Positions 21,076 to 55,792 of a DNA stretch of 64,000 nt are shown here, piece after piece (within the stretch, counting starts at the first letter, position 1; every line of letters starts with the position of its first letter). The stretch lies in IMG/VR virus record IMGVR_UViG_3300043451_000043, one strand, 5' to 3'. The translations under genes were made by a program, and so were the position numbers. Under the pieces are notes generated by a model. That model searched no databases and was not told where the DNA came from. It worked only from the letters and a program-made list of their open reading frames with translations. The DNA comes from a virus.

Positions 21076-21244
21076 AGAACGTTACCGCTATCATTGCCAA
21101 GACCCAAAGAATTGGGCGCAGAAGCGATGCCAGCGCCCCGACTGTCAGTTCACCCAAGACTGTCCTGATTACCTCGTAGCACCTATTTTGGAGAAGCCAA
21201 GTGTCCCACAAGCACCAGCATCAACAGCGTCTTCTGACCGCTGA
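21026..21244 (+). CDS. putative lipoprotein
   Basis: MKKLLLLSLLLTLLGC is a canonical signal peptide plus lipobox. Four Cys follow. Confidence 0.4.
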   Translation: MKKLLLLSLLLTLLGCEERYRYHCQDPKNWAQKRCQRPDCQFTQDCPDYLVAPILEKPSVPQAPASTASSDR

Positions 21245-21707: not shown

Positions 21708-22114
21708 TTCCGAACCCCTCGATGATTCTGGGGGCTATCGTTGTCGCCTTAACTGCATATTTCTACGGCCACCATGTAGGCTATGCGCTAAAGGAAGCGG
21801 AGGACGCAGCTCTGATAGCCCAGAAGAACACCGAGATGCGCCAGCACAAGGATGAACAAGATGCCAAAGATGCCAACACCAAGCAAGAGTTTGAAGCTAA
21901 GTTGTCTAGCGTTATTGCTAGCCGCCCAAGGTTGTTCGTCCCCACCAAAGGTGGATGTGCCACCACTCCCGGCAACGATGGTCAAGCGCGAGCCGAACTT
22001 GACGGACAGACTGTTGAAGACCTTATCCGGCTCGTCGCCGAAGGAGACAGGGCCATCATCGAACTCAACTCCTGCATCGACAGGTACGAAGCCGTAAGGA
22101 ACACACTGAAATGA
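21704..22114 (+). CDS. i-spanin (Rz-like)
   Basis: N-terminal TM, charged coiled-coil periplasmic domain, contains an embedded +1 lipoprotein gene, upstream of the endolysin. Confidence 0.55.
   Translation: MIPNPSMILGAIVVALTAYFYGHHVGYALKEAEDAALIAQKNTEMRQHKDEQDAKDANTKQEFEAKLSSVIASRPRLFVPTKGGCATTPGNDGQARAELDGQTVEDLIRLVAEGDRAIIELNSCIDRYEAVRNTLK
21852..22097 (+). CDS. o-spanin (Rz1-like), embedded in the Rz frame
   Basis: 81 aa. Signal peptide with lipobox-like LAAQGC, Pro-rich mature part. Lies entirely inside 21704-22114 in another frame. Confidence 0.5.
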   Translation: MNKMPKMPTPSKSLKLSCLALLLAAQGCSSPPKVDVPPLPATMVKREPNLTDRLLKTLSGSSPKETGPSSNSTPASTGTKP

Positions 22115-22722
22115 TTACCGCATCGCAACTGACGCGTTTACATATCGACCCCGCCATGATGGACCCGCTCAATGCTACGTTCATCAAATTCAAGATCGAC
22201 ACACCCCGCAAGCAAGCTGCCTTCCTTGGCCAGTGCGGGCACGAGTGCGGCAACTTCCGCATCTTCGAAGAGAACCTGAACTACAAAGCCGCCACGCTGA
22301 TGAAGCTGTGGCCCAAGCGTTTCCCCGCCCTAGAAATTGCAAACCAGTATGCAGGCAACCCCAAGAAAATCGCGAATAACGTCTACGCTAACCGCATGGG
22401 CAATCGCGATGAGTCTAGTGGTGATGGCTATCGGTTTAGGGGTCGTGGTGGTATTCAGCTTACTGGCCACGCTAATTACTACCATGCTGGTCAAGCTCTT
22501 GGGGTGGACTTCGTAATGAACCCTGACTTGGTGGCCACGCCGCTGTACGCGATGTTGACTGCTGGGTGGTTCTGGTCTACCCACGGCTGCAATGAATTAG
22601 CCGAAGCTGCCAACTGGGTCGGTCTGACCAAGAAGATCAACGGCGGTACTATAGGTCTTGAGGACCGTGTATCCCATACAGCCCTCGCATTGAATGTGTG
22701 CGGTGAGTGCACTGTTGCCTGA
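22111..22722 (+). CDS. endolysin, glycoside hydrolase family 19-like
   Basis: QCGHECGNF, NRMGN and YRFRGRGGIQLTGHANY motifs typical of GH19 lysozymes. Confidence 0.65.
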   Translation: MITASQLTRLHIDPAMMDPLNATFIKFKIDTPRKQAAFLGQCGHECGNFRIFEENLNYKAATLMKLWPKRFPALEIANQYAGNPKKIANNVYANRMGNRDESSGDGYRFRGRGGIQLTGHANYYHAGQALGVDFVMNPDLVATPLYAMLTAGWFWSTHGCNELAEAANWVGLTKKINGGTIGLEDRVSHTALALNVCGECTVA

Positions 22723-28186: not shown

Positions 28187-29287
28187 ATGCTGGGCAAATC
28201 AACTTCCAACATGTCGCTTGAAGAACTGCAAAAAGCAGTGATGGGCGCTAACCCCGCCATTGAGCCTTACCAAGCATTGGCTGCCATCGAGAAGATGGTC
28301 AAGGCCGAGAAAGCCAAGACCGCGCAGTTGGCTCAACAGCCGCGCCCTCAAGGTATGGTGGCCCAACGCACAATGGCCGAAGCTGCTGCACTACGTAACC
28401 CCTATATGGCGGCTGGTCTGGGCGCTGCCCCCGTCGCTTCTCCTGTGACCACCCCGATGGGTGAACAGGCTGCCCCTGTTGGTATGGCAGGCGGGGGCAT
28501 GGTTGCGTTCGCCAAAGGCGGTATCACACCCTACGAGTCTGGTTTTGAAGCCTTGTCTGATGATGAGCGCATCGCAGCCTTGCAGAAATACAAAGAAGCT
28601 CTTGGCGCGAACAACGCCGAACTGCTCTCTCCGTTAGAAGCCCAACAAGCCAAGTACGCACAAGAAGCTGAGAAGACCAAGAAGGGTGGTTTGAGTGACG
28701 CACTCCTCGCCGCAGGTCTGGGCATGATGGCTGGCAAATCCCAGTACGCCATGCAGAACATCGGTGAAGGCGGCCTAAAAGGTCTGGCCCAGTACCAAGA
28801 GTCACAGAAGGCCGCGCAAATGGCGCAAGACAAGATGTTGCAGTCTCAAGCCGATATGGCCAAGTCACGCATCGCCCTCGAAAAAGGCGACGAGACAACT
28901 GCTGCCGCACTGCAAAACCAAGCACGCCAAGAAGCACAGGCGGCTGGCCAATTCAAGCTACAAGGTCAATACTACGCTGGCTCCAACGCCGCGCAGATGG
29001 CTGCGGCTCAAAACCGTGGTTTGGCTGGTGGGTACGGCGCGGACAAGCAACGTTTGGCTGAACTCAAACTCATGTTGACCAGCAAGCAAGCAGAACTCAA
29101 AGACAAATCCATGATGCTACCAAAGAACGCCACACGTAAGGCGCAGTTGCAGGGTGAGGTGGACGAGTTGAACAAAGTGATTGCTTCGATGGCTGGGGTC
29201 GGTACAATGGCACCAAGTACCCCCGGCGCAGGCGCTGCTGGCGGTCAGAACGTATATAACTTCAACGACATTACGAAGCCTCAGTAA
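28187..29287 (+). CDS. A/Q-rich internal virion protein candidate
   Basis: 366-aa ORF, helical composition. Confidence 0.45.
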   Translation: MLGKSTSNMSLEELQKAVMGANPAIEPYQALAAIEKMVKAEKAKTAQLAQQPRPQGMVAQRTMAEAAALRNPYMAAGLGAAPVASPVTTPMGEQAAPVGMAGGGMVAFAKGGITPYESGFEALSDDERIAALQKYKEALGANNAELLSPLEAQQAKYAQEAEKTKKGGLSDALLAAGLGMMAGKSQYAMQNIGEGGLKGLAQYQESQKAAQMAQDKMLQSQADMAKSRIALEKGDETTAAALQNQARQEAQAAGQFKLQGQYYAGSNAAQMAAAQNRGLAGGYGADKQRLAELKLMLTSKQAELKDKSMMLPKNATRKAQLQGEVDELNKVIASMAGVGTMAPSTPGAGAAGGQNVYNFNDITKPQ

Positions 29288-29288
29288 C

Positions 29289-32200
29289 ATGGCCTACTCA
29301 ATTCGCCTCCCAGATGGTTCGCTGGTTCAGAACATCCCTGACAACATTCCACCACACGAGGCGAAGGCTCAAATCCTGCAATCCCGACCTGAGTTCGGCG
29401 ACACCAAACGTTCATGGGGCGAAGCTGCCGGTGACATCGGCGCAAGTGCGTTATCTGGTTTGGGCTCGTTGGCCCAGCTCCCCGGCCAAGCCTATGGGCT
29501 GGCCACAGGTGACTTCGATACTGGCATCCTGCAAGGAGCCAAGAAGTTGTCCAAGTTTGGTGAAAGCCTCAAGTCGGAAGGCTTGCAGGCACGCGAAGCA
29601 AAGCGCGACATCAAAGTAGCTGAGGCCGAGAAGAACGGCCAGCTCAGTGCATTCGGCACGTCGTTTGCCGAGACAGTCAAAGACCCCGCACTGTTCACAT
29701 CGTTCCTTGCGGAACAACTCCCACAACTGTTTGTGCCCGGCTCCGCCGCTATGGGTGCTGGCCGCATGGCGTTTGCCAAGGCTGTTGCCTCTGGCGCTGG
29801 TGAGAAAGCTGCTACCGCTGCCGCAGTTGCCGCCGGTACGGCCGCAGCCAAAGGTGCTGGCGCAGTTCAGCAAGGTGCCGATGTTGGCGCTCAAGCCTAC
29901 GAAGACCTCTACAAACGCCTTGTCAAAGACGGCAAGTCCAAAGAAGAAGCCGCAGCCCAAGCTATTGGTTTAGCGCGTGCCACCGGCGCAAGTGCAGCGG
30001 CTATTTCTTGGTTAGCGCAGGGCTTGCCCGGCGCACAGGCACTTGAGAAGGCGCTCGCAGGTGGCGCTACGAAGTCTGGCATTGCCAAGGCGTTTGCCGC
30101 AGGTGCAGCCGGTGAGGGCGTCAGCGAGATGGTCGAAGAAGGTGGTGGTAAGTTCTCGCAGAACTTAGCCATGCGCGACATTGACCCAACCCAAGCCTTG
30201 ATGCAAGGTGTCGGTGCTACTGCGGGTCAAGCGGCCGTTGGCGGTGTTGGTATGGGCGGTGCCGCAGGTGCTATCTCCAGTGGTCGCGGTCGCCCCGATG
30301 TGGCGCAGGTAGCCAAAGCTGCCAACGTACCGGCTAGCGATTTAGAGAAAGCCAATAACGAACGCATCCTTCGCCAGCAACAAGAACAACTGAGCGCCGC
30401 ACAAGGCAAAGAAGCCCGTGCCGGTGAGAAACTTCTCGCAGCAGAAGACGCAGATTTGGCTGCCCAAGCAGCCGCAGACAGCAAGGCACGGGGCGAAGCA
30501 CTCGCTGCTCAAGAAGCAGAACTCCGCGCAAAGCGCGAGGCTGACCTGCAAGCAGCGTTCCCTTCCGACTACCAAGATGTGATGGCTGGTGCCAACGCAT
30601 ACGCCGAACTGTTCAAAGAGAAGCAGTCGCTTGAGGGTGAGCGCAAGACCAAAGAAGTCCGCGCTCGCATCGCGCAGCTCGACGCCCGTATGCTTGAGAT
30701 TACGGAAGCTGACACCCGCGTGGCTTCTGCTGTGGCACAACTGCAAAAAGATCAAGAGAAGCTGGCAAAAGCCGCTGGCTTCCCCGCCAAGAAGTCTGCC
30801 AAGGCTATGGAGAACGCGCCCGCGCAGATGGAAATGCGTGAAGCGTTGGATGTGCCCACCCAACCACAGACCGATTTGTTTGGTAACCCACTACAAGTCG
30901 CGCCTGACGAAGCCACACCGACCGCAGGCGACTTGCTTGACGGCGTGCCCATGACCACGCAGAACCTCGAAGACGCAGGGCTTGGTCCGACACGCAAAGA
31001 GATGGTTGCCGCAGGACAGCGCAATCTGTTCCAACAACGCCAGCCACGCGGCGGGAAAACCTCCACGCCAACACAAGCTGACACCGGTTTAGAACAAGCC
31101 GTCACAACAGAAGAGCAACCAGTTACCGAGCCCAAGAAGGTTGAGAAGCCTGTCGCGCTCACACCTGAGACTGTGCCCACCACCGTCACACCCGACGTGC
31201 TGGGTGCCTTGGGAATTGGCCGCACAGCCACGATTCGCAAAGCCGACCACGGCATCATGGGCAAAGACATCGCCGACCCAGCACAAGCTGGGGAAGTCAA
31301 GTCCATTCTTGAAGCCTACAAAGAAGGCCGTAGTGCCCCCATCCAGCAGAAGATTGATGCCTACCTCGCACGACCAGAGTTCCAAGCCGCCGCGCCTACC
31401 GCGCCGACTACAACGGGAGAAACAAATGCTCGACCAGTTAAGCAAAAAGGACGTGGAGCTAGCGTTCCAGCACCTGTCGAAACCGATACAGGAAGCGCCG
31501 CCCCCGCAGTTGCAGAATCTGAACGAGCTGGAATGGTTCCTGTTGGACAGGATGTTGGCGCAGATACTGGCCGAAAAGCAAAGTCAGCCGCTCCAGTAAA
31601 CATGTTTGAGCAGTTGGTGCAGAAGGAAAAAGCGCCAGAAGAAGGCACTACACCCGACACCACGCTCAAGTCACTCCCCGACGATGTTGAGGCAGAAGTC
31701 CCCGTCCATCTCCGCCCGTGGGGTGGCGTACAGCTATGGCGTCCAGAATCTCAAGGCGCGGAAGCAATGACCGACGTGCAGGCCGCCCTCCAAGAGAAAG
31801 CACGAGCGGGTGATGTACGTGGTGCCTTGCAGGCTATCCTTGACGCGCCAGCAGGTGTGTACAACGAACTCGACAAGCTGGTGGCAAAACGTCTGCTGGC
31901 TGCTAGCTCGCTACCCACGCTGGAAGTTGTGGCCGCCAAAGAAGGTTCACCTGACGGTACGTACGATGCCGTGAACGACCACGTGCAGTTGACTGAAGGT
32001 TCGGTCGGCAGTCACACACTCTTGCATGAGTTGGTCCACGGGTTCGTCCACCGCATGATTGCCCTGCACGAAGGCGGTATCTCCAAGAACCTGCATATCG
32101 GTAACCTGCGCCAGCTCTACGACTTTATCGCCAAGCAACATCCTGAATTGGTGAAGACCTACGGCATGACAAACCTGAGCGAGTTCGCCTCTGAGGTCAT

Positions 32201-35096
32201 GTCAAACAAGGCGTTCCAGAAAGAACTGCAAAAGATTACCTACCGCCGCGAGAACGCTTTCACCGCGTTTGCCAAATCCGTGCTGCGCATCTTGGGCATC
32301 TCCCCCACCGACCAGAACACCGCACTGGGCTCTGCCCTGATCTCGGTTGAAGCTGTCATGGGTGAAGGCCGCCGCCTGCAAGAATCCGCCAAGGGCACGA
32401 ACGTCGAAGGCTCTCTCGACAATATCGCCAACGTGTGGGGTCAGGGCACACTGGATGCCATCCGCCAGATTCAAGATGCTGTCGGCTCCGATACCCCCGA
32501 ACAAGTTGGTGGGGTAATGGAACAAGCGTTGAGCGGTATCAAGCGTGCGCGTGAGAAGACAGGTATCTTGGCGGCGTTCCGCCAAGCCGCCGTGAACAAG
32601 TACGCCACCGTGGAATCCAAGGTTTCGCAGATGTTCTCGCAAGGCGTGCGCGATGCGTTCGGCAACCTGAACCCGATGTTGCTGGTGCGCCAAGCTGACG
32701 ACAGTGCCAAGACCATCATGGACTTCTTCCGCGCTGGTGGTATCCGAATCAACAAAGATGGTTTGGTAGAAACCTTCGACACCGACGCATCCGCAACACA
32801 GGCGCTCAAGGAAATCCAAGCGTTTGCAGAAGCCGAAGGCATGGACTTCGACAAGGCGAAGAAGGACATCTCCACCGTGTTGGAAGGCCACCGCCTGCAC
32901 TCAATCCGCGAGTTCAACAACCAGCTTGAGCAGTCAGCCAAGATACTGGAAGCCCAAGGCAAGAACAAGCAAGCCGATGCAGAGCGTGCCCGCAAGATTC
33001 GTCTGCACATGACGAACCAAGAGATCGACACGCTCGAAGAAATCTACCAATCTACCCCCCGCATCCAGAAGGTGCAGGAAGTGTTCAACGCAACCCGCGG
33101 TCAAGCGATTGACTTGATGGTGGCCAGCGGCCGCATCACCAAAGAGCGCGGTGAAGATTGGAAATCGAACTCTGCCTACGTGCCGTTTGACCGTGTGCTG
33201 GAAGACATTGGCCCCAACCCTATGCCACGTGGCAAGGGCTTGGCCGTACTCGGCAGCGACCCAAAGATCAAAGGCTCGATGGAGAAGCCAATCAAAAACG
33301 CCATCGACTCGTACATGAACACCCTCGGCTGGATGGTCGAAGATGCCATGAAGAACCGCGCTGCGGTCGAGTTGCTGGAAACTATGGCCGGTGTTGGTTA
33401 CGCTGAGAAGCACGCCAAACCTAGCATGGCCAAGAATGAAAATCTCGTGGTGCCCCGCCTATTCCAAAACGGCGAGCCTGTGTACTTCGAGGTGCAGAAC
33501 GAGTTCGATATGGCTGCGTTCCAGCAGGCCCCAGAGATGACCAACTGGCTCATCAAGGGTCTGGCCGCCACCTCACGATTCATGCGCACCAGCGTCACGG
33601 CAATGCCACCATTTGCGGTCAAGCAGGTGCTGGAAGACGCGACCCGTGCTGCCATGTATTCCGGCGTGGAGCGCCCACTTGTTGTGGCAATGAAGACTTT
33701 GTACAACCTGCCCCGCACCTTCTATGGTGAGTGGACCGGCAAGAAGTCTCCTATGGTCAAGCGCATGGAAGAGTTGGGCATCATCGGTGACTTCGACTTC
33801 AACATCTACCAGCCAACCACCGAGATCGAAAAAGAAATCGGCGCAAAGAAACGTGGCACCGCGGGCACGATCTTCCACAGGCTCGAACAGTTCACCAAGG
33901 CATCTGACTTGGCCGCACGCTTGGCTGTGTACGAAGAGACGATGCGCGACACCAACGGCGACGAAGTGCTGGCCCAGACCCGCGCACGCGAACTGATTAA
34001 CTTCAACCGCCGTGGTTCGTCAGGTACCATGAACACGCTGTCCCGCGTGATTCCCTTCTTCAACGCGTACGCCCAAGGCTTGGATGTACTGTACCGTTCA
34101 GCGTCTGGTATCGACTCGACCAGCTCGATCGAACGTGGTGCAGCACGTCGTTTGTTCTGGAGCCGTGTTGGCATGATGACTGCCTTCGGCATGATGTACG
34201 CCTTGGCCATGTCGGGCGACGACGGCTACGAGAACGCAACGGATGACGTGCGTGACAACAACTGGATTCTGCCCGGTGGCTTCAAACTGCCTGTGCCAAA
34301 AGAATTGGGCTTCATCTTCAAGGTCATCCCAGAGCGTGTCGTCGAATACGCCAAGCGTTCTGGTACCCCAGAAGAGCAGAGCGTAGCTGAAGCGGTCACT
34401 GGCGTGCTCAAGTCGGCGCTGTCCACCTACGGTATGCCAAACACTGTGCCGTCCACCATCCGCCCTGTGCTGGAGAACATGACCAACTATTCGTTCTTCT
34501 TGCAGCGTGAGTTGGAATCCACCTCGATGCAGGGTAAGGAGCCCGGCCAGCGTTACACATCCAGCACATCTGAGTTGGCCAAGGCGATCGGTGAAGCCAC
34601 TAACATGTCGCCAATCAAGATCGACAACCTCATCCGCGGCTGGTTCGGTATGGTTGGTTCGACTACCCTGCTGGCTACCGACGCGATGTTGAACCCAACA
34701 CGCCCTGACCGCCCGATCTACCAGATGCCGTTTGCCAGCATCTTCTTGTACGACACGATTGGTGGCCGCGCCAAGAATGAGTTCTACGACGTTCAGAACA
34801 AGGCAGCGCAGGCTGAGAACACCTTCAACGATCTGCTGGAGAAGGACCCTGCCAAGGCTGAGAAATACCTTGAGAAAAACGAGGCTCTGATTAACGCAGC
34901 ACCGGTGCTGAACTCATCTCTCGAAGAGCTGTCCAACTTGCGCCGATTGCGCCTAATGGTGGAGCAGGGTACCGACGAAGAACTCGGCATGGATGGCGCG
35001 GAACGCCGCAAGTTCATCGACGAGATTCGCCAAAACGAAAACGAGTCCCTGCGCTACGTGCGCGAGTTGAAAAAGCAAATCAACGACGCGCAATAA
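29289..35096 (+). CDS. giant virion protein (~1935 aa) with zincin-like HExxH motif
   Basis: ATG at 29289 right after the previous stop. N-terminal ~900 aa A/E/K/Q-rich coiled coil. HELVH at 32025-32039. Last gene of the + block. Confidence 0.55.
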   Translation: MAYSIRLPDGSLVQNIPDNIPPHEAKAQILQSRPEFGDTKRSWGEAAGDIGASALSGLGSLAQLPGQAYGLATGDFDTGILQGAKKLSKFGESLKSEGLQAREAKRDIKVAEAEKNGQLSAFGTSFAETVKDPALFTSFLAEQLPQLFVPGSAAMGAGRMAFAKAVASGAGEKAATAAAVAAGTAAAKGAGAVQQGADVGAQAYEDLYKRLVKDGKSKEEAAAQAIGLARATGASAAAISWLAQGLPGAQALEKALAGGATKSGIAKAFAAGAAGEGVSEMVEEGGGKFSQNLAMRDIDPTQALMQGVGATAGQAAVGGVGMGGAAGAISSGRGRPDVAQVAKAANVPASDLEKANNERILRQQQEQLSAAQGKEARAGEKLLAAEDADLAAQAAADSKARGEALAAQEAELRAKREADLQAAFPSDYQDVMAGANAYAELFKEKQSLEGERKTKEVRARIAQLDARMLEITEADTRVASAVAQLQKDQEKLAKAAGFPAKKSAKAMENAPAQMEMREALDVPTQPQTDLFGNPLQVAPDEATPTAGDLLDGVPMTTQNLEDAGLGPTRKEMVAAGQRNLFQQRQPRGGKTSTPTQADTGLEQAVTTEEQPVTEPKKVEKPVALTPETVPTTVTPDVLGALGIGRTATIRKADHGIMGKDIADPAQAGEVKSILEAYKEGRSAPIQQKIDAYLARPEFQAAAPTAPTTTGETNARPVKQKGRGASVPAPVETDTGSAAPAVAESERAGMVPVGQDVGADTGRKAKSAAPVNMFEQLVQKEKAPEEGTTPDTTLKSLPDDVEAEVPVHLRPWGGVQLWRPESQGAEAMTDVQAALQEKARAGDVRGALQAILDAPAGVYNELDKLVAKRLLAASSLPTLEVVAAKEGSPDGTYDAVNDHVQLTEGSVGSHTLLHELVHGFVHRMIALHEGGISKNLHIGNLRQLYDFIAKQHPELVKTYGMTNLSEFASEVMSNKAFQKELQKITYRRENAFTAFAKSVLRILGISPTDQNTALGSALISVEAVMGEGRRLQESAKGTNVEGSLDNIANVWGQGTLDAIRQIQDAVGSDTPEQVGGVMEQALSGIKRAREKTGILAAFRQAAVNKYATVESKVSQMFSQGVRDAFGNLNPMLLVRQADDSAKTIMDFFRAGGIRINKDGLVETFDTDASATQALKEIQAFAEAEGMDFDKAKKDISTVLEGHRLHSIREFNNQLEQSAKILEAQGKNKQADAERARKIRLHMTNQEIDTLEEIYQSTPRIQKVQEVFNATRGQAIDLMVASGRITKERGEDWKSNSAYVPFDRVLEDIGPNPMPRGKGLAVLGSDPKIKGSMEKPIKNAIDSYMNTLGWMVEDAMKNRAAVELLETMAGVGYAEKHAKPSMAKNENLVVPRLFQNGEPVYFEVQNEFDMAAFQQAPEMTNWLIKGLAATSRFMRTSVTAMPPFAVKQVLEDATRAAMYSGVERPLVVAMKTLYNLPRTFYGEWTGKKSPMVKRMEELGIIGDFDFNIYQPTTEIEKEIGAKKRGTAGTIFHRLEQFTKASDLAARLAVYEETMRDTNGDEVLAQTRARELINFNRRGSSGTMNTLSRVIPFFNAYAQGLDVLYRSASGIDSTSSIERGAARRLFWSRVGMMTAFGMMYALAMSGDDGYENATDDVRDNNWILPGGFKLPVPKELGFIFKVIPERVVEYAKRSGTPEEQSVAEAVTGVLKSALSTYGMPNTVPSTIRPVLENMTNYSFFLQRELESTSMQGKEPGQRYTSSTSELAKAIGEATNMSPIKIDNLIRGWFGMVGSTTLLATDAMLNPTRPDRPIYQMPFASIFLYDTIGGRAKNEFYDVQNKAAQAENTFNDLLEKDPAKAEKYLEKNEALINAAPVLNSSLEELSNLRRLRLMVEQGTDEELGMDGAERRKFIDEIRQNENESLRYVRELKKQINDAQ

Positions 35097-45972: not shown

Positions 45973-46429
45973 CTAACGCATTGTGGTGCGTACCCCCACG
46001 GACGAACGGGATGTCAGGGCGCAGGGTCTTCAACGTGCGGTAGCAGCGATCGTTCCAAAACTTCCAAGGCTGTTCTCCATGTGTCTTGCGGTACGCGTTA
46101 GACAGGATGACGTTATCGAATGAAGCACCATTGCCCCACACCACGGCGTCGTGTGGTAGCCAGCGCTCAAACCCCGAGAGCACAACCGGCAGGGATACGC
46201 CGCTCTTCTTGAACGCAGCACGGGCTTCATCTGACTGCTGCATCCACCACATCACGGTGCTGACGTCCATCTGTAATCCAAAATCCACGCAGCTCTGTGC
46301 GTCGATGTTCTCGTAGAACTCTCGCCCCAACTCACCCGTCGCGTGGTCAAACTCAACCGCGCCAAGGGCGATGATGACAGAGTTGCTACCGTTACCCAAT
46401 GTTTCTAAATCGACCATTACGTTATTCAT
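45884..46429 (-). CDS. DnaQ-like 3'-5' exonuclease (DEDD)
   Basis: MVDLETLG (Exo I), HD...GNGASFDNVIL (Exo II/III). Start taken at the internal Met MNNVM to avoid overlap. Confidence 0.55.
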   Translation of the reverse strand: MNNVMVDLETLGNGSNSVIIALGAVEFDHATGELGREFYENIDAQSCVDFGLQMDVSTVMWWMQQSDEARAAFKKSGVSLPVVLSGFERWLPHDAVVWGNGASFDNVILSNAYRKTHGEQPWKFWNDRCYRTLKTLRPDIPFVRGGTHHNALDDAKTQAVHAIAILQALEKSNGTDTRSES

Positions 46430-46815
46430 TTTTGTTTTCCTAGTGAGAGCAAGAACAACATGCAGCATGTGGCATGTGCAAGGTGAGACAAGCCTGTCTC
46501 TTTATCAGTGGCTTCGCCTTCGTTGTACTTGATGATGTGGCGGAACGCGGCGGCGAGGTAGCGTGTCTCTGCATGTTCAACATGCTTCCAGTTGTCACGT
46601 GCGTATTTCTTTGCGCCGAACTCTAGCACCTTGACCACTTCGTCCATGCCGTCCCACGGCACGAGTGTGTAGTCGAGCTTGCCGCCGTCAAACTTCATGC
46701 CTTTCTCGGCAGCTTCTGCCATCAGGCTCATCTTATCAGCCAAGGCTTTCATCGCCTCTTCTTCCTCTGGTGTGAACTCAGGGAACATTTCAATTTGTGC
46801 GTTGGTAGGTATCAT
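46426..46815 (-). CDS. dATP/dGTP diphosphohydrolase N-terminal domain-like protein (PF18909-like)
   Basis: DGGKLDYTLVPWDGMDEVVKVLEFGAKKYARDNWKHV...RYLAAAFRHI fits my recollection of that family pattern. Not searchable here. Confidence 0.45.
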   Translation of the reverse strand: MIPTNAQIEMFPEFTPEEEEAMKALADKMSLMAEAAEKGMKFDGGKLDYTLVPWDGMDEVVKVLEFGAKKYARDNWKHVEHAETRYLAAAFRHIIKYNEGEATDKETGLSHLAHATCCMLFLLSLGKQK

Positions 46816-48420: not shown

Positions 48421-48708
48421 TCACGCTCCTGCTTTTTGGTCCACGGTATCGGTGGGTGGGGTGGAAATGGCCACGTCATGTCGTTCCTCACAAAATTCTA
48501 TAGATGCGTTGGCGATCATGACGCGTGACTCTTGCAGATTGCACTTCTCACATGAACGCCGCTGAATGACGTTGACGCCTGTGTTCTCGGGGTCATCCCA
48601 CTTGGTCCACTTGTGGCGGCATTTGTCACGGTGTTCAACCAAGTGAATCACCAGCATGACCAGCATTACAGAGGCAGGGATAGTCACCATCAAAAATAAG
48701 TCTGTCAT
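48421..48708 (-). CDS. membrane protein with zinc-ribbon
   Basis: TM LFLMVTIPASVMLVMLVIHL followed by CRHKW...CEKC. Confidence 0.4.
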   Translation of the reverse strand: MTDLFLMVTIPASVMLVMLVIHLVEHRDKCRHKWTKWDDPENTGVNVIQRRSCEKCNLQESRVMIANASIEFCEERHDVAISTPPTDTVDQKAGA

Positions 48709-48950
48709 TGCATGTCCCTCAGCTTATCCAAGTGGTCCCAATAGAACTCAGTGTGTGCCTTGGCATCTTCCACCTTGTCGTGGTCGAGGTACTTGCACAC
48801 ATCACGTGCAGCTTCAACCGCACCTTGCAGATGTGTGTGAGCACGAGCGCCGTATTCAAAGCCCATCTCGTAGGCGTTCTCCATCGCAGTCACTGTGTTC
48901 TCGTCACAGCCAACGCTACGCAACAGCGTAGACATTTCATCTTTAGTCAT
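48705..48950 (-). CDS. hypothetical protein
   Basis: 81 aa, acidic, ATGA overlap. Confidence 0.4.
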   Translation of the reverse strand: MTKDEMSTLLRSVGCDENTVTAMENAYEMGFEYGARAHTHLQGAVEAARDVCKYLDHDKVEDAKAHTEFYWDHLDKLRDMQ

Positions 48951-49168
48951 TTTGAAATTCCATCCAGTAGAAGAAGCCCCACAGCAGTGCTACCAGCACA
49001 CCGCAGCCCAGCGCCATGAGAAGCACCATCAGTGCTACGTTCTCGATCATTTGCAGGTCCCCATACTCATTGCTTTGCTATGCAGCACATCCCACACGTC
49101 TGGGTCACCAGCGAATAGGAAGCAGCACACGAGTAGGAATACCCAGAAGCGTGTGTCATTGCTGTCCA

Positions 49169-49453
49169 TCAGTAGCCCCTTGCCTTGCGGCGTTCTGCCC
49201 AATACGCCTCGTTTTCGGCAGCATCCTTACGAGCACCTACTACGCGCAAGTAGTTGATAGCCAACATGCCGACCACGATAGAGATACCGATCATCAGCAT
49301 CCCTACCCAGAAGTTCGTGCAGAGTTGCCAGAGCACCATCAGCACCCATGTGATTGCGGTGGTTGCGCCCACCACAAAGATAGCGATGCTTTTAAGTGTC
49401 GGTACGGTGGCTTGCCACGCGGCTTTTAAATCGTCTTTAAATTGTTGTTGCAT
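49169..49453 (-). CDS. small membrane protein
   Basis: 94 aa, two hydrophobic helices. Confidence 0.4.
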   Translation of the reverse strand: MQQQFKDDLKAAWQATVPTLKSIAIFVVGATTAITWVLMVLWQLCTNFWVGMLMIGISIVVGMLAINYLRVVGARKDAAENEAYWAERRKARGY

Positions 49454-49658
49454 ATCTTTCCTCCTTACTCACATAGCTGATTCGCAAGAACAGCGCCCAG
49501 CCAAACAACCCAGTGCTGATAGCGTAGAACATGCGGTCTTCCCGAGCCCACATGAATGGGTCGAAGTTGGCACCTACGATAGCCATAAATGGATACACCA
49601 ATGCCGCCGACACAATGAACGGCGTGACGCACAGCGTCATCTCTTTAAGTTCTTTCAT
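49437..49658 (-). CDS. small membrane protein
   Basis: 73 aa, hydrophobic helices. Confidence 0.4.
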   Translation of the reverse strand: MKELKEMTLCVTPFIVSAALVYPFMAIVGANFDPFMWAREDRMFYAISTGLFGWALFLRISYVSKEERYATTI

Positions 49659-50146
49659 TGTGCCACCTCTTTACCTTTAGGCCAACCCAACTTGCTCAAG
49701 TCAGCCACAACATTTGCAAGGGCTGGTAGTGTGGTGATCGGTTTCTCAATCGTCGGGAAGTAGCTCTTGAACTCGGGCAGTCGGTCGTTGAGTTGTTTGA
49801 TAGTGGTACATGCCATGACAGCAGCTTTGAGCGAGTCACGTGCGTTCTGCCGCGCCTTGTCTTCGTCGTGGTATTTCTGCTTGAGCTGGTCAAGGGTCTT
49901 GGTTTCAACATCCCCGATGACCACATCCCGCGTACCCCAGCTACACCCGTCGTATATCAAATCGCCGAAGTGGTGGGTGCGTAACGCGTGCGGTGCCTTC
50001 TTGTACAGCTTGCGGCACTCAGGTGACATGGCCTTGACGATGGCGGCTTGCAGTTCCTCCCTGCGCTTCTTCTTGTCTGGTACCGGCACATCATTCATGA
50101 TGGCGCGGACGATTGCCTCTTTATCCCATTTGGTGATGCGTGACAT
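49655..50146 (-). CDS. hypothetical protein
   Basis: 163-aa ORF. Confidence 0.4.
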   Translation of the reverse strand: MSRITKWDKEAIVRAIMNDVPVPDKKKRREELQAAIVKAMSPECRKLYKKAPHALRTHHFGDLIYDGCSWGTRDVVIGDVETKTLDQLKQKYHDEDKARQNARDSLKAAVMACTTIKQLNDRLPEFKSYFPTIEKPITTLPALANVVADLSKLGWPKGKEVAQ

Positions 50147-50330
50147 TTGATTCCCCTTTGATGATTGGTTTTACATGGCATGAATGGTGGAGGGTGCTGA
50201 GACCCTCCCCCTCTAGTTGGCAGACGTACCGCCATTTGTTCTTCCACAGGTAGCGCCCGAGGAACGTGAACCGTTGGCCTGTACGTTTGAGCATGAATCT
50301 CGCCCCTTCGGGCAGCTCCCGTAGAAACAT
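50121..50330 (-). CDS. hypothetical protein
   Basis: Start assigned to the internal Met (MFLREL) so that it abuts the SPFH gene stop. Low certainty. Confidence 0.3.
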   Translation of the reverse strand: MFLRELPEGARFMLKRTGQRFTFLGRYLWKNKWRYVCQLEGEGLSTLHHSCHVKPIIKGESNVTHHQMG

Positions 50331-51133
50331 CACTTCACGTGAATGAATGGCGTGGCGTTGCCCGACATAGTGGCAGGCAGCTTGCCGTCCCACTTCTTGA
50401 TGGCTTCGAGGTCAACGAACTGCTGGCCGCCCTGTGCTGACACGGCAGATGCCTTGATACGGATTGCATCGGCTACACCCTGAGCCTCGACACGCATACG
50501 CTCGGCTTCGGCCTTGGCCAACTCAACTTCCTTCTGCTTGGCGTTGATCTGGAATTGGCGGTTGGCCGCTTCCATGATGGCCTTCTCAAGTGCGGGGTCG
50601 GTCACGAGGTTACGCACGTTGGCACTACGCACAAAGAACCAGCCCTTACCTGCTGACTCGTCGAGGTCCTTCTGCAACTGCTTGACCACATCGGCAGCGA
50701 TTGACGTGCGCTCAGTGTGTACCGTGGCAGAGCCGTACTTGGTCACCGTGTTGTAGATGTTCTCACGTGCTTGGCGGGTCACATAGTTCATACCGATGCG
50801 TGCGCCGTCTTCGCCCTTCTCATAGGTTACGTCGCCCGGCCAGCGGGTCATGATGTCCGCAGCTTTGCTTGGGTCGATCTGAATGTAGATGTCCACGTCC
50901 AAGTCAGACAGTGTGATCTTGTCGCTTGTCTGCGGCTTCATGTCGTCGAACTTCAGCAAGAGTTCTTTTGCAGATACCTCGGTCACACGTTTGAACATGG
51001 TGAAGTACACGCCCGGCGGCATGGTCTCATGCTTGACCTGACCCAGCGTGGATTCCACACCGATGTTGCCCGTGTCGATTTGTGAACATGCTGTCAGCCA
51101 GACAGCGGCGAATGCGATTAAAAGTCGTTTCAT
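50330..51133 (-). CDS. SPFH/band-7 (prohibitin/HflKC-like) domain lipoprotein
   Basis: MKRLLIAFAAVWLTAC is a signal peptide plus lipobox. Body has the SPFH-like arrangement with a C-terminal coiled coil AKAEAERMRVEAQ. Confidence 0.55.
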   Translation of the reverse strand: MKRLLIAFAAVWLTACSQIDTGNIGVESTLGQVKHETMPPGVYFTMFKRVTEVSAKELLLKFDDMKPQTSDKITLSDLDVDIYIQIDPSKAADIMTRWPGDVTYEKGEDGARIGMNYVTRQARENIYNTVTKYGSATVHTERTSIAADVVKQLQKDLDESAGKGWFFVRSANVRNLVTDPALEKAIMEAANRQFQINAKQKEVELAKAEAERMRVEAQGVADAIRIKASAVSAQGGQQFVDLEAIKKWDGKLPATMSGNATPFIHVK

Positions 51134-51143
51134 GTATCTCTCC

Positions 51144-51380
51144 TTAAAAGATTTTTCCGGAACCAAAAGTAGCTTGCGTCATGAACGCCAGCCATACGAG
51201 TAAGAACAATGCCACCACCTTGAACAGATGTGTGCCACGGAACTTACGCAAAGCGTCCTTGGCCTCGCTCGGCAGGTAGTACCAACCGAAGTAGCCAATG
51301 AACACAATTAGGGTGAGGGCAATGAGATGTTTCATTTCCACGTCCTCCACATATAGACACCGATAAATATCCACATGCAC
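51144..51380 (-). CDS. small membrane protein
   Basis: 78 aa, two TM helices. Confidence 0.4.
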   Translation of the reverse strand: MHVDIYRCLYVEDVEMKHLIALTLIVFIGYFGWYYLPSEAKDALRKFRGTHLFKVVALFLLVWLAFMTQATFGSGKIF

Positions 51381-51637
51381 ACACCGATAGCCAAGTACGC
51401 CTTGTCTTGCCAGCGTTGCTCAGGTGGGTAGAACGATTCCATGCCGTCACCTAGATGGCGGAACGCATCGTCTGTTGTGCGTGGGAAGCACCGTGTCGTA
51501 GGGCAACCGTGGTTGTCGATGTAGTGCTGGGCACGTTCACGTGTCGATGCACGTACAACCTTGGGCTTCTTATAGATAGCGACGAGCAGCCTACGCTTGA
51601 CTCGCGTCTTGATGATTGTGTAGATACGGTTAAACAT
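51332..51637 (-). CDS. hypothetical protein
   Basis: 101 aa, TM near the C-terminus. Confidence 0.35.
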   Translation of the reverse strand: MFNRIYTIIKTRVKRRLLVAIYKKPKVVRASTRERAQHYIDNHGCPTTRCFPRTTDDAFRHLGDGMESFYPPEQRWQDKAYLAIGVCMWIFIGVYMWRTWK

Positions 51638-52006: not shown

Positions 52007-53176
52007 TCACATATGAACGGTAACGCCGTTAGCAGCGGTGATATGTCGGTTGTCAGCGATACACCAGAGTATTGGCGCAGGCCAATCGGTGCCCCAGCTT
52101 CCGAAGACTTCACCGTCTGTAAGCATGACGATACAGTCGGGTTTGATATTGTGCTCATTGAGATAGGCAGACATGCACTCGGGGTCGGTGCCGCCGCCAC
52201 CTTTAGGCTTAGTGGATTCGCGCAGTGTTGATAGCGCGGCTTCGTCATAGGTTTCGTGTGCTGCAACGTTGTGCCCCCAGTAAATCAGATCGACCATCTC
52301 AGGCTTCACAGAATCAAAAATTGATTGCGCCTCGGACAAGAAAGCAGCCAGTTCCTTGTTGCCAATAGAGCCAGACGTGTCTACGCCCACCGCGATGCGG
52401 AAGATGCGATCACTGAAGGTTGTGGGCAACATCAGGTCTTGGCTTTGGAAACGTCGATTGATACGACGATAGCTTGAGTAGTCGTCGCCAACCTTACTGT
52501 TCGTGATGAACTCACGCAACGCCTCACGCCAATCAACCTTAGGCTCCAGCATGTCGAGTAGGGCGCGGTCAACGTTCACGCCAGCCTTGGATGCAAGGAT
52601 GCCGCCTTGACGCAACGCGCCGTCAATCGTGCGGGCCAGCTCATCCACCTCATCAGGTGTCATGTCTTCGGTGCTGTCCCAATCGTGTTGGTCGAAGCCT
52701 GCATTGCCAGACTTACCTGCGGAGCTGCCACCGTTGGGGTACTGTTGCTTGAGCTTGCGGAACACCTCACCTGCGTCCATGCCACGGTACTGCTCGTCGA
52801 GGCAACCACCATCAGGCAGTTTGACGAAACGATCTTTGAGGTAGCGGTCGTTGATCGGCAGGTTGATAACGAAGTCACACGCCATGTTCGCAAGCATGGG
52901 GTCTTCCTTATACATCCAGCGCCAGATGAACGTGTGCTTAAACGCGCAGTGCATCTTCTCATGCAACACCAAACCCATCAGCTCTTGGTCAGACAAGGTA
53001 GCAATGAATTGTTGGCTGTACTTGGTGTTCACGCCATCGGTACATGCGGTCACCGCAGGGTCATCGACCACTTCGGTTTTGCCATACATGATGATGCCAG
53101 CAAGCATCATGTACTCAGGGTCACGGATGAGTGACACGTGAGCGCGTTCGAGTCGCTGTTGTGGTGTTAAGTTCAT
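52007..53176 (-). CDS. VWA domain protein with N-terminal putative metallopeptidase (HExxH) domain (DUF2201/VWA-like architecture)
   Basis: LVLHEKMHCAF contains HExxH. VDTSGSIG is a D-x-S-G-S MIDAS motif. Partnered with the MoxR ATPase. Confidence 0.6.
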   Translation of the reverse strand: MNLTPQQRLERAHVSLIRDPEYMMLAGIIMYGKTEVVDDPAVTACTDGVNTKYSQQFIATLSDQELMGLVLHEKMHCAFKHTFIWRWMYKEDPMLANMACDFVINLPINDRYLKDRFVKLPDGGCLDEQYRGMDAGEVFRKLKQQYPNGGSSAGKSGNAGFDQHDWDSTEDMTPDEVDELARTIDGALRQGGILASKAGVNVDRALLDMLEPKVDWREALREFITNSKVGDDYSSYRRINRRFQSQDLMLPTTFSDRIFRIAVGVDTSGSIGNKELAAFLSEAQSIFDSVKPEMVDLIYWGHNVAAHETYDEAALSTLRESTKPKGGGGTDPECMSAYLNEHNIKPDCIVMLTDGEVFGSWGTDWPAPILWCIADNRHITAANGVTVHM

Positions 53177-53852: not shown

Positions 53853-54908
53853 TCACACGAACATGTATTGATTCTGGATAGCGAAGCCCGTGAACTTGCT
53901 GTTGTCGAGCACGAACGCCTTGCTGTCTTTCTTGATAGCAGTGGTGCAGAACAACGCTTGCATTTCCTTGGGCATACGTGCCATGTAATCCATCCACGCA
54001 TCGAGTGTGCCTTCCTCAACCCAGTTCAACGCTTGGTGAGTCAGCATCATCTTGCCTGCGATTTCCTTAGGCATCTTGGCGTTCTCAGGGTCAGCAAGAA
54101 TCTCGGCACGCTTGGGCAACGAGTCACCCATAGCAATCCACGCTTGCAAGTCAACGGTAGCTGGCGCACCGATGGTGCCGATCAGTGCCACCTCAAGCGC
54201 GTTGTTGGTGAAGCGATGACGGTTGTTCACGATCTTGCTGGCCTGTGTCAACGAGCGGTGTGTCACGAACGCAGTGCGTTGTGCCTTGGGGTGGAAGATG
54301 TATGGGTTGTCGTTCGGGTCTTGGTAGTGATCGAACGGTGCCAACGCCTCGGGGCGCTCACCTGCCCACATGATGATCTCAGGTGCCACGCCATTGAGTG
54401 ATGCGTAGTCGTCAATCCATTCCTTAGCGGTAGGCTTGGCCATCTTCACGAATGATAGGCGGTTGCGGTGGTGTGCTTGGAACGTATCGCCCACAGACTC
54501 AGAGCCTAGGTTGGTCGTTGCAAACACGATGCTGTCAGGGTGCAGGTATTGGTTACCCAAGCGGCGCTCAACCAGCAGAGGTAGGGCCGCATCTTTCACA
54601 GGCTTGGATGCCTTACCCATCTCGTCCAGCATGAGGACGACAGGCGTGTTGTCGTGCATACCCAGCGAAGCGTTGGGGTAGAACTCAGATGACTTGGTTG
54701 CGTGGTCAACAGCAGGTACACGGAAGTCACCCTCGTGCATCACAGTCATGTCGAGGTACATCTTGCGGTGCGTAGGGAAACGCTTGGCCACCATGTCGAT
54801 CAAAGATGATTTACCAGAACCGATGTGGCCCTCAACAATAGTGGTCACGTCAGCGCCAGTGGCGGAGATAAAGTCAACGGTCTCGTTGTAGTTCATGTGA
54901 GCTTGCAT
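53853..54908 (-). CDS. MoxR-family AAA+ ATPase
   Basis: Walker A GHIGSGKSS, Walker B VVLMLDEMGKA. Size and arrangement as in MoxR/CbbQ-like ATPases. Confidence 0.65.
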   Translation of the reverse strand: MQAHMNYNETVDFISATGADVTTIVEGHIGSGKSSLIDMVAKRFPTHRKMYLDMTVMHEGDFRVPAVDHATKSSEFYPNASLGMHDNTPVVLMLDEMGKASKPVKDAALPLLVERRLGNQYLHPDSIVFATTNLGSESVGDTFQAHHRNRLSFVKMAKPTAKEWIDDYASLNGVAPEIIMWAGERPEALAPFDHYQDPNDNPYIFHPKAQRTAFVTHRSLTQASKIVNNRHRFTNNALEVALIGTIGAPATVDLQAWIAMGDSLPKRAEILADPENAKMPKEIAGKMMLTHQALNWVEEGTLDAWMDYMARMPKEMQALFCTTAIKKDSKAFVLDNSKFTGFAIQNQYMFV

Positions 54909-54925: not shown

Positions 54926-55792
54926 TTAGATTTCAAGTTGGAATTTTTCTACGAGGTCATTCATCTTTGTCTTGACTGACTCACGTAGCTCAGGGGACTC
55001 ACGTAGGGATTTGATGTCTACGTTCTCTAATGACAGCTCAAGCTGTCGTCGTGCTTCTTCTAGCTTGGGGTCGTCCAGCACGTTAAGCGATTTCAATGTC
55101 TCGCACAAACGCAGGGCGTTCTCAAGCATGGATGCAAACAACTTCGATGGCTTGCCATCTTCTTTGGGCACCATCTTGTTGCGGATGTGGGTGATCTCTA
55201 GATACAACCTATCCCACGGCTCGATCATGGCATCCTCAAGGCGGTCACGCATGGTCGCTTCGAACTTGTCCTTGAGCTGCTGTGCGGCCTCGGCAGGTAT
55301 GTCTACACGGAAGTCACCAGACTCAGGCACAGGTGTGAAGTGGTAGCGTAGGGCAAACTTCTTATGGAGGTCTGACGCGTCAGGGTACTCTTTCGAATCG
55401 AAAAGTTTTCCCAGCTTGAAAGCCTGTGCTGCTACCTTTGTCGAGTAGTTATTCACAAACCTATCCACAAGCGCGTTGAACTGTTGCTCGTGCTGATTCA
55501 GCTCGTGGCTAATGTCGAAGAACGCTTTGGTTGGTACCAAGCGTGTGCCTGTGTCTGACCACGGCAGAGTCACCTGATACAACCATGTGCGCACCAAGCC
55601 AGCGTACGAATTGATCGCGGCTAGGTCATCGTCCTCAGCAAACAGATTCTTGTGAACCGATGTAGCTGAAGCACGTGCGCCCTTGGCCAAGCTAACCTCG
55701 TTGGCTGTTGCCTTGTCTTGCTTGCGCCCTGTGTACACAGAGATGTTTAAGTCGAGCAGCATCGCACTCGACGAGAGTGATTTATGTTTCAT
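54926..55792 (-). CDS. hypothetical protein (first gene of the MoxR-VWA cluster)
   Basis: 288-aa ORF. Confidence 0.45.
   Translation of the reverse strand: MKHKSLSSSAMLLDLNISVYTGRKQDKATANEVSLAKGARASATSVHKNLFAEDDDLAAINSYAGLVRTWLYQVTLPWSDTGTRLVPTKAFFDISHELNQHEQQFNALVDRFVNNYSTKVAAQAFKLGKLFDSKEYPDASDLHKKFALRYHFTPVPESGDFRVDIPAEAAQQLKDKFEATMRDRLEDAMIEPWDRLYLEITHIRNKMVPKEDGKPSKLFASMLENALRLCETLKSLNVLDDPKLEEARRQLELSLENVDIKSLRESPELRESVKTKMNDLVEKFQLEI

Follow-up and report, generated by a model that had tools for sequence, protein, structure and literature searches.

On membranes, closed rings or domes of full-length SPFH proteins have been seen by cryo-electron microscopy (PMC12624060), and the HflK/C-FtsH and prohibitin-m-AAA assemblies offer precedents for SPFH cages (PMC12624060, PMC13086221, PMC2636767). 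HflK/C (SPFH3) face the periplasm, the prokaryotic prohibitins (SPFH4) probably do so as well, and both are without NfeD partners; the latter accompany some of the cytoplasm-facing subfamilies (SPFH1, 2 and 5; Hinderhofer et al., PMC2636767). In the current study we analysed an SPFH lipoprotein gene, together with the 63-codon gene directly upstream of it (product p63), in a tailed-phage genome of 64,000 nt, the IMG/VR record IMGVR_UViG_3300043451_000043 of an uncultured aquatic phage, referred to in its whole length as the window. The phage SPFH family is already catalogued in hundreds of phages, and nothing categorically new is claimed in that regard. What the analysis adds is that the two genes constitute a sharply bounded functional unit with an obligate 63-aa hairpin protein, and that the wider cluster of small open reading frames (ORFs) around them is incidental.

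The window protein is a clear member of the catalogued and widespread phage family phrog_200, annotated in Piffle, Pokken (Stenotrophomonas), the N4-type Bas69, P1-like phages, P88, Stx2 phages, Kuttervirus and BcepF1/Maja; the label in the Burkholderia phages BcepF1/Maja is 'HflC/HflK family inner membrane lipoprotein'. Shared with these relatives are the signal peptide and lipobox, the SPFH body, a long helix and a K-W-[DN]-G-x-L-P...P-F tail, and most of them have a small hydrophobic ORF abutting the SPFH gene. The window protein is, however, only 24-31% identical to them and falls in a distinct uncultured subclade, and their partners are without detectable similarity to p63 and of opposite predicted topology. 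The only place found where such a pair has been named is in the Kayvirus phages of Staphylococcus, as mbpV/mbpS (PMC7150955). There too, a small membrane-protein gene lies directly before the SPFH gene, start and stop abutting, and MbpS is 26% identical to the window protein. The Kayvirus case differs in its Gram-positive host, in MbpS being held by a transmembrane (TM) helix of its own and not by lipid, in the 102-aa MbpV having a single TM helix and a charged tail, and in the pair lying inside the lysis module, whereas the lysis genes of the window are 28 kb from the cassette. No functional study of any phage SPFH protein was found in the literature searched. In a Bruynoghevirus paper the SPFH gene is considered as a marker of lysogeny, though a doubtful one (PMC8540360), and PM0222, the SPFH protein of a Pasteurella prophage, is shed in outer-membrane vesicles and acts through TLR1/2 signalling (PMC9872710). 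P1 Plp, with Upl as the partner, was considered as an identity and rejected, the reference P1 plp being a 125-aa minus-strand gene; the CRISPR interference result of 'non-essential' for plp/upl (PMC10695390) is not applicable because P1 plp is another protein. In P1-like variants, the SPFH cassette fills the variable dmt-ban slot.

Among cellular systems, HflK/HflC and the prohibitins resemble the window cassette in the SPFH fold with wall and roof helices, the predicted periplasmic SPFH domain and the lack of an NfeD partner. Distinct from HflK/C and PHB1/2, the cassette has a single SPFH gene, a lipid anchor in place of the N-terminal TM helix and the obligate 63-aa hairpin. By topology, and by the label 'prohibitin family protein' that NCBI gives to some phage members, the phage family would fit periplasm-facing SPFH3/SPFH4. 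The SPFH-NfeD operons (PH1511/PH1510, QmcA-YbbJ, YqiK-YqiJ, FloA-NfeD) also have the SPFH gene translationally coupled to a small membrane-protein gene, and a scaffolding or anchoring role in the assembly has been proposed for the product of the latter (PMC4208085, PMC2636767). In contrast to the SPFH proteins linked to NfeD, which are on the cytoplasmic side (PMC2636767), that of the window is predicted to be exported, and p63, too short at 63 aa, has no OB-fold or ClpP-like domain. Identity of p63 as an NfeD-type partner was rejected accordingly: p63 gave no Pfam match even at E ≤ 1, and p63 and six partners from other phages gave no NfeD match at that threshold. A spanin pair was likewise dismissed, given that the window lipoprotein is a 267-aa SPFH protein and not a small Pro-rich o-spanin, that p63 is almost without a periplasmic part, and that an Rz-like spanin is encoded elsewhere in the window.

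An SPFH lipoprotein and its 63-residue partner

The cassette comprises the following features.

50330-51133, minus strand: gene of the SPFH/Band_7 lipoprotein, 267 aa (Pfam, PHROG, AlphaFold2 and Foldseek)
51086-51097, minus strand: lipobox L-T-A-C, residues 13-16 (read from the sequence)
50396-50596, minus strand: long helix rich in Ala, Glu, Lys and Arg, residues 180-246, 67 residues (DSSP on the AlphaFold2 model)
50333-50395, minus strand: conserved C-terminal tail, ...KKWDGKLPATMSGNATPFIHVK (phrog_38808, tblastn)
51144-51335, minus strand: gene of p63, 63 aa, the SPFH partner (start, AlphaFold2 model, pairing, codon usage)

The SPFH gene starts at an ATG behind an AAGGAG ribosome-binding site. 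The N-terminus of its product, MKRLLIAFAAVWLTAC, then SQIDTG after Cys16, is a classical signal peptide with the lipobox LTAC, and the mature protein would begin with Cys16, in lipidated form, and have Ser at position +2. Among 40 aligned homologs of 74-96% identity, neither Cys16 nor the QIDTGN behind it varies. From the Sec/SPII-type signal and the lipobox, export of the protein, hence a periplasm-facing SPFH domain, is predicted. The Pfam domain Band_7 (PF01145) is matched with 48.9 bits against a cut-off of 23.6 (E = 1.1e-12; residues 18-210, profile positions 2-176 of 176), phrog_200 'lipoprotein' over residues 4-266 (E = 2.8e-45), and phrog_38808 over the C-terminal residues 206-267 (E = 2.9e-12). 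A phmmer search of the PDB sequences returned no relative of the protein. The fold, on the other hand, is recognised: the AlphaFold2 model consists of an alpha/beta body, a single helix of residues 180-246 and a flexible tail, and the first 43 places of the Foldseek search against the PDB are all taken by SPFH proteins (probability 1.0, best E = 4e-7), among them erlin1/2, stomatin, prohibitin, HflK/C and flotillin, aligned near full length over 245-318 columns. In the viral structure library BFVD the top fold matches are phage Band 7 proteins. In the predicted model, helix 180-246 corresponds to the wall and roof helices of SPFH cages. The first-pass annotation, which had been made from the DNA letters, had proposed a lipoprotein with LTAC lipobox, SPFH-like body and C-terminal coiled coil, and Pfam, phrog_200, the invariant Cys16 and the AlphaFold2 model bear out an SPFH lipoprotein with a long C-terminal helix; absence of an SPFH fold, named there as the outcome to speak against the proposal, is contradicted by the 43 top matches.

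The C-terminal tail is the stretch most widely conserved across phage lineages. Restricted to it, tblastn gave matches of 37-48% identity in Caulobacter, Burkholderia and Pseudomonas phages and in Firmicutes genomes, and the motif K-W-[DN]-G-x-[LQ]-P is found also in N4, a P1-like phage, Piffle and Kayvirus.

The partner had been delimited as 51144-51380 in the first-pass annotation. Its true start is the ATG at 51335, preceded by a GGAGG ribosome-binding site and overlapping the stop codon of the upstream ORF as ATGA. Coding is supported by a codon-usage log-likelihood score (LLR), trained on the long genes of the window, of +20.7 bits. The AlphaFold2 model of p63 (predicted local distance difference test score, pLDDT, 90.3) is a hairpin of helices 2-20 and 36-57, joined by a short basic helix (23-33), and its C-terminal tail is free. 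A profile search among 5.8 billion proteins gave 122 clusters of the p63 family, almost all of exactly 63 aa, with the consensus M-[KR]-H, helix 1, basic loop, helix 2 and S-x-x-hydrophobic-hydrophobic. His36, in the loop, is invariant, and Tyr15 and Trp18 of helix 1 are nearly so. These clusters carry no Pfam domain and no functional name, and p63 is a member of an undescribed protein family. The mean count of Lys plus Arg is 4.1 in the loop, 1.0 at the N-terminus and 0.5 at the C-terminus, so that by the positive-inside rule the loop would be cytoplasmic and both ends periplasmic. A topology of N-out/C-out in the inner membrane is predicted on this basis, and in the model only ~3 and 6 residues of p63 are exposed to the periplasm. 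Identity of p63 as a holin was rejected: there is no holin match in PHROGs or Pfam, the gene is not in the lysis cassette of the window, and the protein lacks a charged C-terminal tail.

A horizontally mobile two-gene cassette

The protein database holds 653 close SPFH homologs at E ≤ 1e-5, the best 120 of which are 74-96% identical to the window protein, and many sit on contigs of 55-65 kb. IMG/VR adds 46 SPFH loci, each of which was searched with every protein of the window region. Across the ~46 related contexts, only the ORF directly upstream, p63, co-occurs with the SPFH protein; the vWA-like, AAA and Nmad5 proteins and the small proteins p73, p94, p40, p35, p81 and p95 (named by length) do not. 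At every close-family locus read, a 63-codon two-helix ORF stops 7-12 nt short of the SPFH start codon or shares an ATGA with it, and the apparent exceptions were GTG starts or script artefacts. The pairing is reciprocal. When the four most divergent p63 matches on long contigs were taken, a Band_7 gene was found 8-10 nt downstream in 6/6 places, amid differing outer neighbours (RdgC/ThyX, dCMP deaminase, TROVE/NinX, DUF6378; DNA polymerase is another of the differing cassette neighbours).

The borders of the exchanged unit can be read from the DNA itself. Homology between the window and the loci L009, L041 and L014 runs from 51335, the p63 start, to 50334, at the SPFH stop, and the flanks are unrelated; because the similarity stops at the borders, the exchanged unit is exactly the two-gene cassette. 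It is thus shown to be a self-contained, horizontally mobile accessory cassette of ~1 kb, extending from 51335 to 50330 on the minus strand. No convincing flanking sigma-70 promoter or intrinsic terminator, as in a moron, was found. Its neighbours are early or replication genes in every metagenomic context read and, from gene position only, we infer early expression of the cassette. Within it, the two proteins co-diverge (Mantel r = 0.51, p = 2e-4) at quite different rates: mean pairwise identity is 35% for p63 compared to 77% for the SPFH protein, which reaches 97% identity across unrelated phage backbones. In the closest pairs, dN/dS is 0.011-0.03 for SPFH and 0.12-0.15 for p63, rough values with dS near saturation. 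Both are real proteins under purifying selection, the SPFH protein being extremely constrained. An omega of ~0.01-0.03 is as expected if most of the SPFH surface were oligomer interface, which is compatible with a cage and no proof of one.

The window subclade (66-97% identity) is found on phage and metagenome contigs only, with no member in 185,579 bacterial species genomes, where no homolog exceeds ~30% identity over the whole SPFH protein. Cellular relatives from bacterial genomes and metagenome-assembled genomes (22-30% identity) almost all have an N-terminal helix anchor of their own, and an upstream small hydrophobic ORF is present in 3/32 of them; L055, the clearest exception, combines a lipobox with a partner of the phage type. 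In cultured phages, tblastn gave SPFH homologs of 24-31% identity in 772 INPHARED records, spanning Schitoviridae, Ackermannviridae, Herelleviridae, P1-, P2- and lambda-like phages and jumbo phages. Seventeen of these records were examined for an upstream partner, and 12/17 have a small hydrophobic ORF that adjoins the SPFH start or runs into it. This ORF has two helices in Piffle, P88, a P1-like phage, a Stx2 phage, AlfredRasser (N4-type), PhaxI (Kuttervirus), Maja (Burkholderia), PAN70 (Pseudomonas) and QDWS595 (Alcaligenes phage), and one helix in Kayvirus P108, Bacillus B13 and AR9; the partner is absent from the other five (4MG, with a soluble ORF in between, Erwinia M7, EFDG1, an Erwinia jumbo phage and Skarpretter). 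The enterobacterial partners have a P-x-[ML]-[IV]-S-S loop motif and basic termini. Positionally equivalent partners therefore recur in many unrelated phages, sometimes unannotated, and annotation faults are exposed by the comparison: the partner ORF directly upstream of SPFH is missing from the P1-like record MH422554 (78 aa, two helices; L007, 2784-3020) and from the Stx2 phage record LC567840 (~62 aa, two helices; L126, ~1290-1480). Several Stx2 phage records also misname the SPFH lipoprotein 'serine protease', a label probably carried over from NfeD/ClpP-type partners. SPFH lipoproteins are among the commoner accessory envelope genes of tailed phages.

How the SPFH body is held at the membrane varies within the family. 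Of 116 full-length representatives, 77 have a lipobox, 32 one N-terminal helix and five a fused helix-basic loop-helix, and several IMG/VR homologs carry such a TM1-basic loop-TM2 element fused onto the SPFH body. These arrangements suggest, as an architectural argument, that the mini-protein supplies the transmembrane element to SPFH proteins without one. A strict rule by which a lipobox implies a two-TM partner fails for 4MG and Erwinia M7, and 3/6 TM-anchored phage forms have a one-TM partner. Homology of the Rosetta-stone kind, of p63 to the fused two-TM N-termini or to the N4, P88 and PhaxI partners, was discarded as not above segment-shuffled controls: against a hidden Markov model of p63, the partners of other lineages and the fused N-termini scored -1.6 to 7.5 bits, and the shuffled controls had a mean of 4.8 and a maximum of 29.2.

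A putative periplasmic cage and competing explanations

Based on this evidence, the cassette is best understood as encoding a cage that resembles HflK/C or prohibitin, assembled with p63 at the periplasmic side of the inner membrane, a reading to which we assign a probability of about 0.5. The SPFH protein would be exported via Sec and lipidated at Cys16. Like every full-length SPFH protein with a solved structure, it would then oligomerise into a ring or dome, whose base would rest against the inner membrane from the periplasmic side, in the orientation of HflK/C and the prohibitins. p63 would provide the transmembrane element missing from the lipid-anchored protein, either anchoring the dome or being enclosed by it, and the dome might fence a membrane patch and so control inner-membrane proteins inside or outside of it. 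We infer, in this sequence of events, the dome oligomerisation, the periplasmic-face location, the association of p63 and the fencing of the patch.

What the phage would gain is viewed with less assurance. Capture or shielding of an inner-membrane client, for instance a host FtsH-type quality-control protease, is the leading but tentative candidate, drawn by analogy from the only two SPFH cages of such topology whose function is understood. Envelope protection or superinfection exclusion appears nearly as likely as client capture. There is a slight chance that the benefit lies in lysis timing or lysin export, an idea weakened by the location of the lysis genes at 21.7-22.7 kb on the other strand, and a slighter one that it lies in the outer membrane. 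Extended to the pair and its equivalents in >700 phage genomes, the cage could be a portable membrane-fencing device, installed by the phage and used to hijack or neutralise a conserved inner-membrane machine of the host, FtsH for instance, or to bar injection in a novel way, with the fast-evolving mini-protein acting as the specificity or anchoring subunit. Although this generalisation is doubtful, it would, if true, represent a widespread phage strategy. The minimal, clonable unit of ~1 kb makes cage formation, localisation, client capture and exclusion directly testable.

Several observations weigh against the proposed inner-membrane cage. The SPFH model is of moderate confidence (mean pLDDT 64.5, core 70-89). 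The FtsH link is weakened in that HflK/C are not the best fold matches and that the NCBIfam HflK/HflC models do not match the SPFH protein. The arguments from fusion and from generality are architectural only, because the elements compared have no sequence similarity to p63, and partner topology differs, p63 being predicted N-out/C-out and the enterobacterial partners N-in/C-in. The lipobox forms of 4MG and Erwinia M7 have no abutting hydrophobic ORF. Finally, Ser at +2 in the window protein would mean outer-membrane sorting by the rules of E. coli, if these apply to the host; the +2 residue is mostly Gly, Thr or Ser across the family; and the vesicle-borne PM0222 (PMC9872710) is at odds with an inner-membrane site.

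These last points lead to the alternative of an outer-membrane lipoprotein, delivered via Lol and serving in receptor masking, vesiculation or host interaction, with p63 merely linked to it. Besides the +2 residues and the TLR1/2-signalling PM0222 of the vesicles (PMC9872710), the annotation of the Piffle homolog as an outer-membrane lipoprotein speaks for this explanation. Obligate pairing and co-divergence with an inner-membrane hairpin would nevertheless be hard to explain across two membranes, and the TM-anchored and TM-fused members must sit in the cytoplasmic membrane. Moreover, Asp occupies position +2, behind the lipidated Cys, in the versions from E. coli phages (P1-like, P88, Stx2), and in E. 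coli this residue is the signal for inner-membrane retention in Lol sorting. The outer-membrane role thus seems improbable. The inner-membrane location of the proposed cage is preferred because p63 would be an inner-membrane protein with little periplasmic exposure, because relatives are TM-anchored or TM-fused, and because of the Asp +2 in the E. coli phages.

The accessory and mobile character of the envelope cassette, and its place in an early/replication block, invite the explanation of superinfection exclusion, in which SPFH assembly and p63 would alter the inner membrane and block genome entry of a second phage in the manner of T4 Imm/Sp or P22 SieA. p63, as a small two-helix inner-membrane protein, is comparable to T4 Imm, itself a small membrane protein. 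The cassette is present or absent among related phages, as is the case for a competition gene (PMC8540360), and a 'superinfection exclusion' gene lies directly upstream of the pair in AlfredRasser (N4) and PhaxI (also PMC3220722). That N4/PhaxI neighbour, however, belongs to Pfam GP17, is soluble, and is absent from the window and all related loci. Guilt by association was discarded on these grounds, tblastn of the N4 and PhaxI GP17 homologs against the window having given nothing. There is also no similarity to known exclusion families: the Pfam/PHROGs scan of the proteins of 48421-51637 had no match to any (GP17, SieB, others). For anti-phage defence systems, PADLOC-DB 2.0 gave zero matches for ten proteins of the region. 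The SPFH conservation (omega ~0.01; 97% identity across unrelated backbones) is unlike that of arms-race proteins that face components of an incoming phage. Exclusion is therefore judged unlikely.

A role in lysis would have p63 as a holin/antiholin-like partner and the SPFH protein as a scaffold that controls clustering, hence timing, or that aids lysin export. It is suggested by Kayvirus, where mbpV/mbpS lie between the endolysin gene lysK and the secreted-lysin gene tgl, and where the authors note a holin resemblance of MbpV and speculate that MbpS may aid Sec-dependent Tgl export (PMC7150955). The enterobacterial partners (~67 aa, two hydrophobic helices, basic C-terminus) are class-II-holin-like as well, and the Piffle pair is ~3 kb from rIIA/rIIB. 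The lysis genes of the window are these.

21201-22722, plus strand: lysis cassette of a 168-aa protein, an Rz-like spanin and an endolysin, with overlapping starts and stops
Within the lysis cassette, plus strand: 168-aa protein (phrog_25359), a holin candidate
21704-22114, plus strand: Rz-like spanin
22111-22722, plus strand: endolysin (phrog_181, E = 2.8e-76)

Spanin and endolysin are thus 28 kb away on the other strand, p63 is without a holin-family match or a charged C-terminal tail, and the neighbours in P88, in P1-like and Stx2 phages and in all metagenomic contexts are early/replication genes, not lysis genes. Taken together, a lysis function of the cassette is quite unlikely. The same separation from the late lysis cassette at 21.2-22.7 kb, along with the position in the replication/nucleotide-metabolism strand block, upholds the early-type placement already given in the first-pass annotation.

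Neighbouring small genes and genome setting

Around the cassette lie further small ORFs, and downstream of it a non-coding gap.

51332-51637, minus strand: p101, 101 aa, basic N-terminus and hydrophobic C-terminus (LLR +15)
50147-50329, minus strand: structured non-coding gap of 183 nt, directly downstream of the cassette and outside the mobile unit
49437-49658, minus strand: p73, 73 aa, small hydrophobic protein (coding by LLR)
49169-49453, minus strand: p94, 94 aa, two hydrophobic segments (AAGGAGG ribosome-binding site, LLR +30.6)
49047-49169, minus strand: p40, 40-aa mini-ORF, start overlapping the p94 stop by one base
48943-49050, minus strand: p35, 35-aa mini-ORF, one hydrophobic helix (LLR +11.7)
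48421-48708, minus strand: p95, 95 aa, one N-terminal hydrophobic helix, four Cys (LLR +16.8)

The first-pass annotation had joined the SPFH protein and six or more small membrane proteins into one early membrane-remodelling module. The functions it suggested for them, superinfection exclusion, membrane microdomains for replication or the timing of lysis, are conjectural. As to the cluster itself, all ORFs exist, with the single correction of the p63 start, and within the 43-gene minus-strand block a hydrophobic segment occurs in 6/9 genes at 48.4-51.65 kb compared to 1/34 elsewhere (Fisher p = 9e-5). Translational coupling joins the genes into one operon, within which neither a sigma-70-like promoter nor a terminator was found, and codon LLR supports coding for p101, p63, p73, p94, p35, p81 and p95. 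The concentration of hydrophobic ORFs is, nonetheless, not matched by co-inheritance. No ORF but p63 accompanies the SPFH gene in the ~46 other contexts, and DNA homology ends at the two-gene borders. Around the cassette in 22 other contexts, the density of small hydrophobic ORFs is no higher within 1.5 kb (12/161) than beyond (18/173); p94 and p95 are orphans, and p40 may be non-coding. A module of the SPFH protein with all six or seven small membrane proteins is consequently very improbable. Because of the missing co-inheritance, the orphans p94 and p95 and the lack of enrichment in the 22 contexts, the small-membrane-ORF island is a feature of the accessory region of the window genome, not of the SPFH system, and the surrounding small membrane ORFs are separate accessory genes.

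Individually, p73, p35, p81 and p101 recur sporadically in a few related phages, elsewhere relative to SPFH: p101 has a homolog only in L018 (46% identity), p73 has homologs in L004, L011, L018 and L021 at other positions, and p35 has one in L011 that is 79% identical. No relatives of p94 were detectable in IMG/VR, and none of p95. The two TM mini-ORFs with an ATGA overlap that the first reading had picked out are present as p40 and p35, overlapping at 49047-49050, and both are called as genes on the identical metagenomic contig L002. p35 is a real gene; the coding status of p40 is ambiguous (LLR -0.1 bits; a called gene on L002 but not on L003). The Cys residues of p95 (C30, C53-x2-C56, C73) are such that it could be a membrane-tethered zinc-ribbon-like protein. 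The gap at 50147-50329 is the only sizeable non-coding gap in the operon. Its RNA fold has -69.8 kcal/mol (z = -2.86; 0/200 shuffles as stable) and includes a GGAGGGU...ACCCUCC hairpin without a T-run, and no Rfam match was obtained. A 69-aa ORF at 50121-50330 that starts on the SPFH stop codon was rejected as non-coding-like (LLR -12.4) and without homologs.

The window genome is divided into two strand blocks. The plus strand at 133-35096 carries terminase, portal, head and tail-fibre-like genes, the lysis cassette and a gene whose 1971-aa product is of the internal-virion type. Read from 64000 down to 35369, the minus strand has genes for primase, helicase, DNA polymerase, exonuclease and nucleotide metabolism, and the p63/SPFH cassette sits in the middle of this block, among replication and nucleotide-metabolism genes. 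Megablast gave no cultured-phage relative of the window, and a tRNA search found no tRNAs. By terminase, the nearest relatives are ~60-kb aquatic phages (HTVC023P-type pelagiphages, DSL-LC04, Planktothrix phages) at ~45% identity, and public metagenome assemblies hold contigs identical or near-identical to the window. In its N-terminal part, the 1971-aa protein (29181-35096, plus strand) weakly matches N4 virion RNA polymerase (phrog_2206, 1.2e-15) and DarB-like families of antirestriction proteins (phrog_10089), and is probably a large internal protein of the virion that is ejected.

A short way upstream of the membrane island there is a minus-strand trio of a DUF2201/VWA-like protein (52007-53176), a MoxR-like AAA ATPase (53853-54908; phrog_1297) and a DUF3150 protein (54926-55792), which does not accompany the cassette at other loci. 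The PHROGs label 'HNH endonuclease' on the first of them looks like a misnomer. In the N4-type AlfredRasser, a MoxR ATPase is found 0.8 kb from the SPFH pair. A weak Rfam match to COG2908 RNA at 52189-52241, plus strand (21.8 bits compared to a gathering score of 58.7; E = 0.023), falls within coding sequence of the opposite strand and is most likely due to chance. Lastly, the minus-strand gene at 49655-50146 encodes an Nmad5 (Nucleotide-modification-associated domain 5) protein (Pfam E = 1.4e-15), and for the gene at 46426-46815, minus strand, the counterpart on an identical contig matches PF18909, dGTP_diPhyd_N, which we take to be the N-terminal domain of a dATP/dGTP diphosphohydrolase. The two genes hint at nucleotide-pool manipulation or DNA modification by the window phage.

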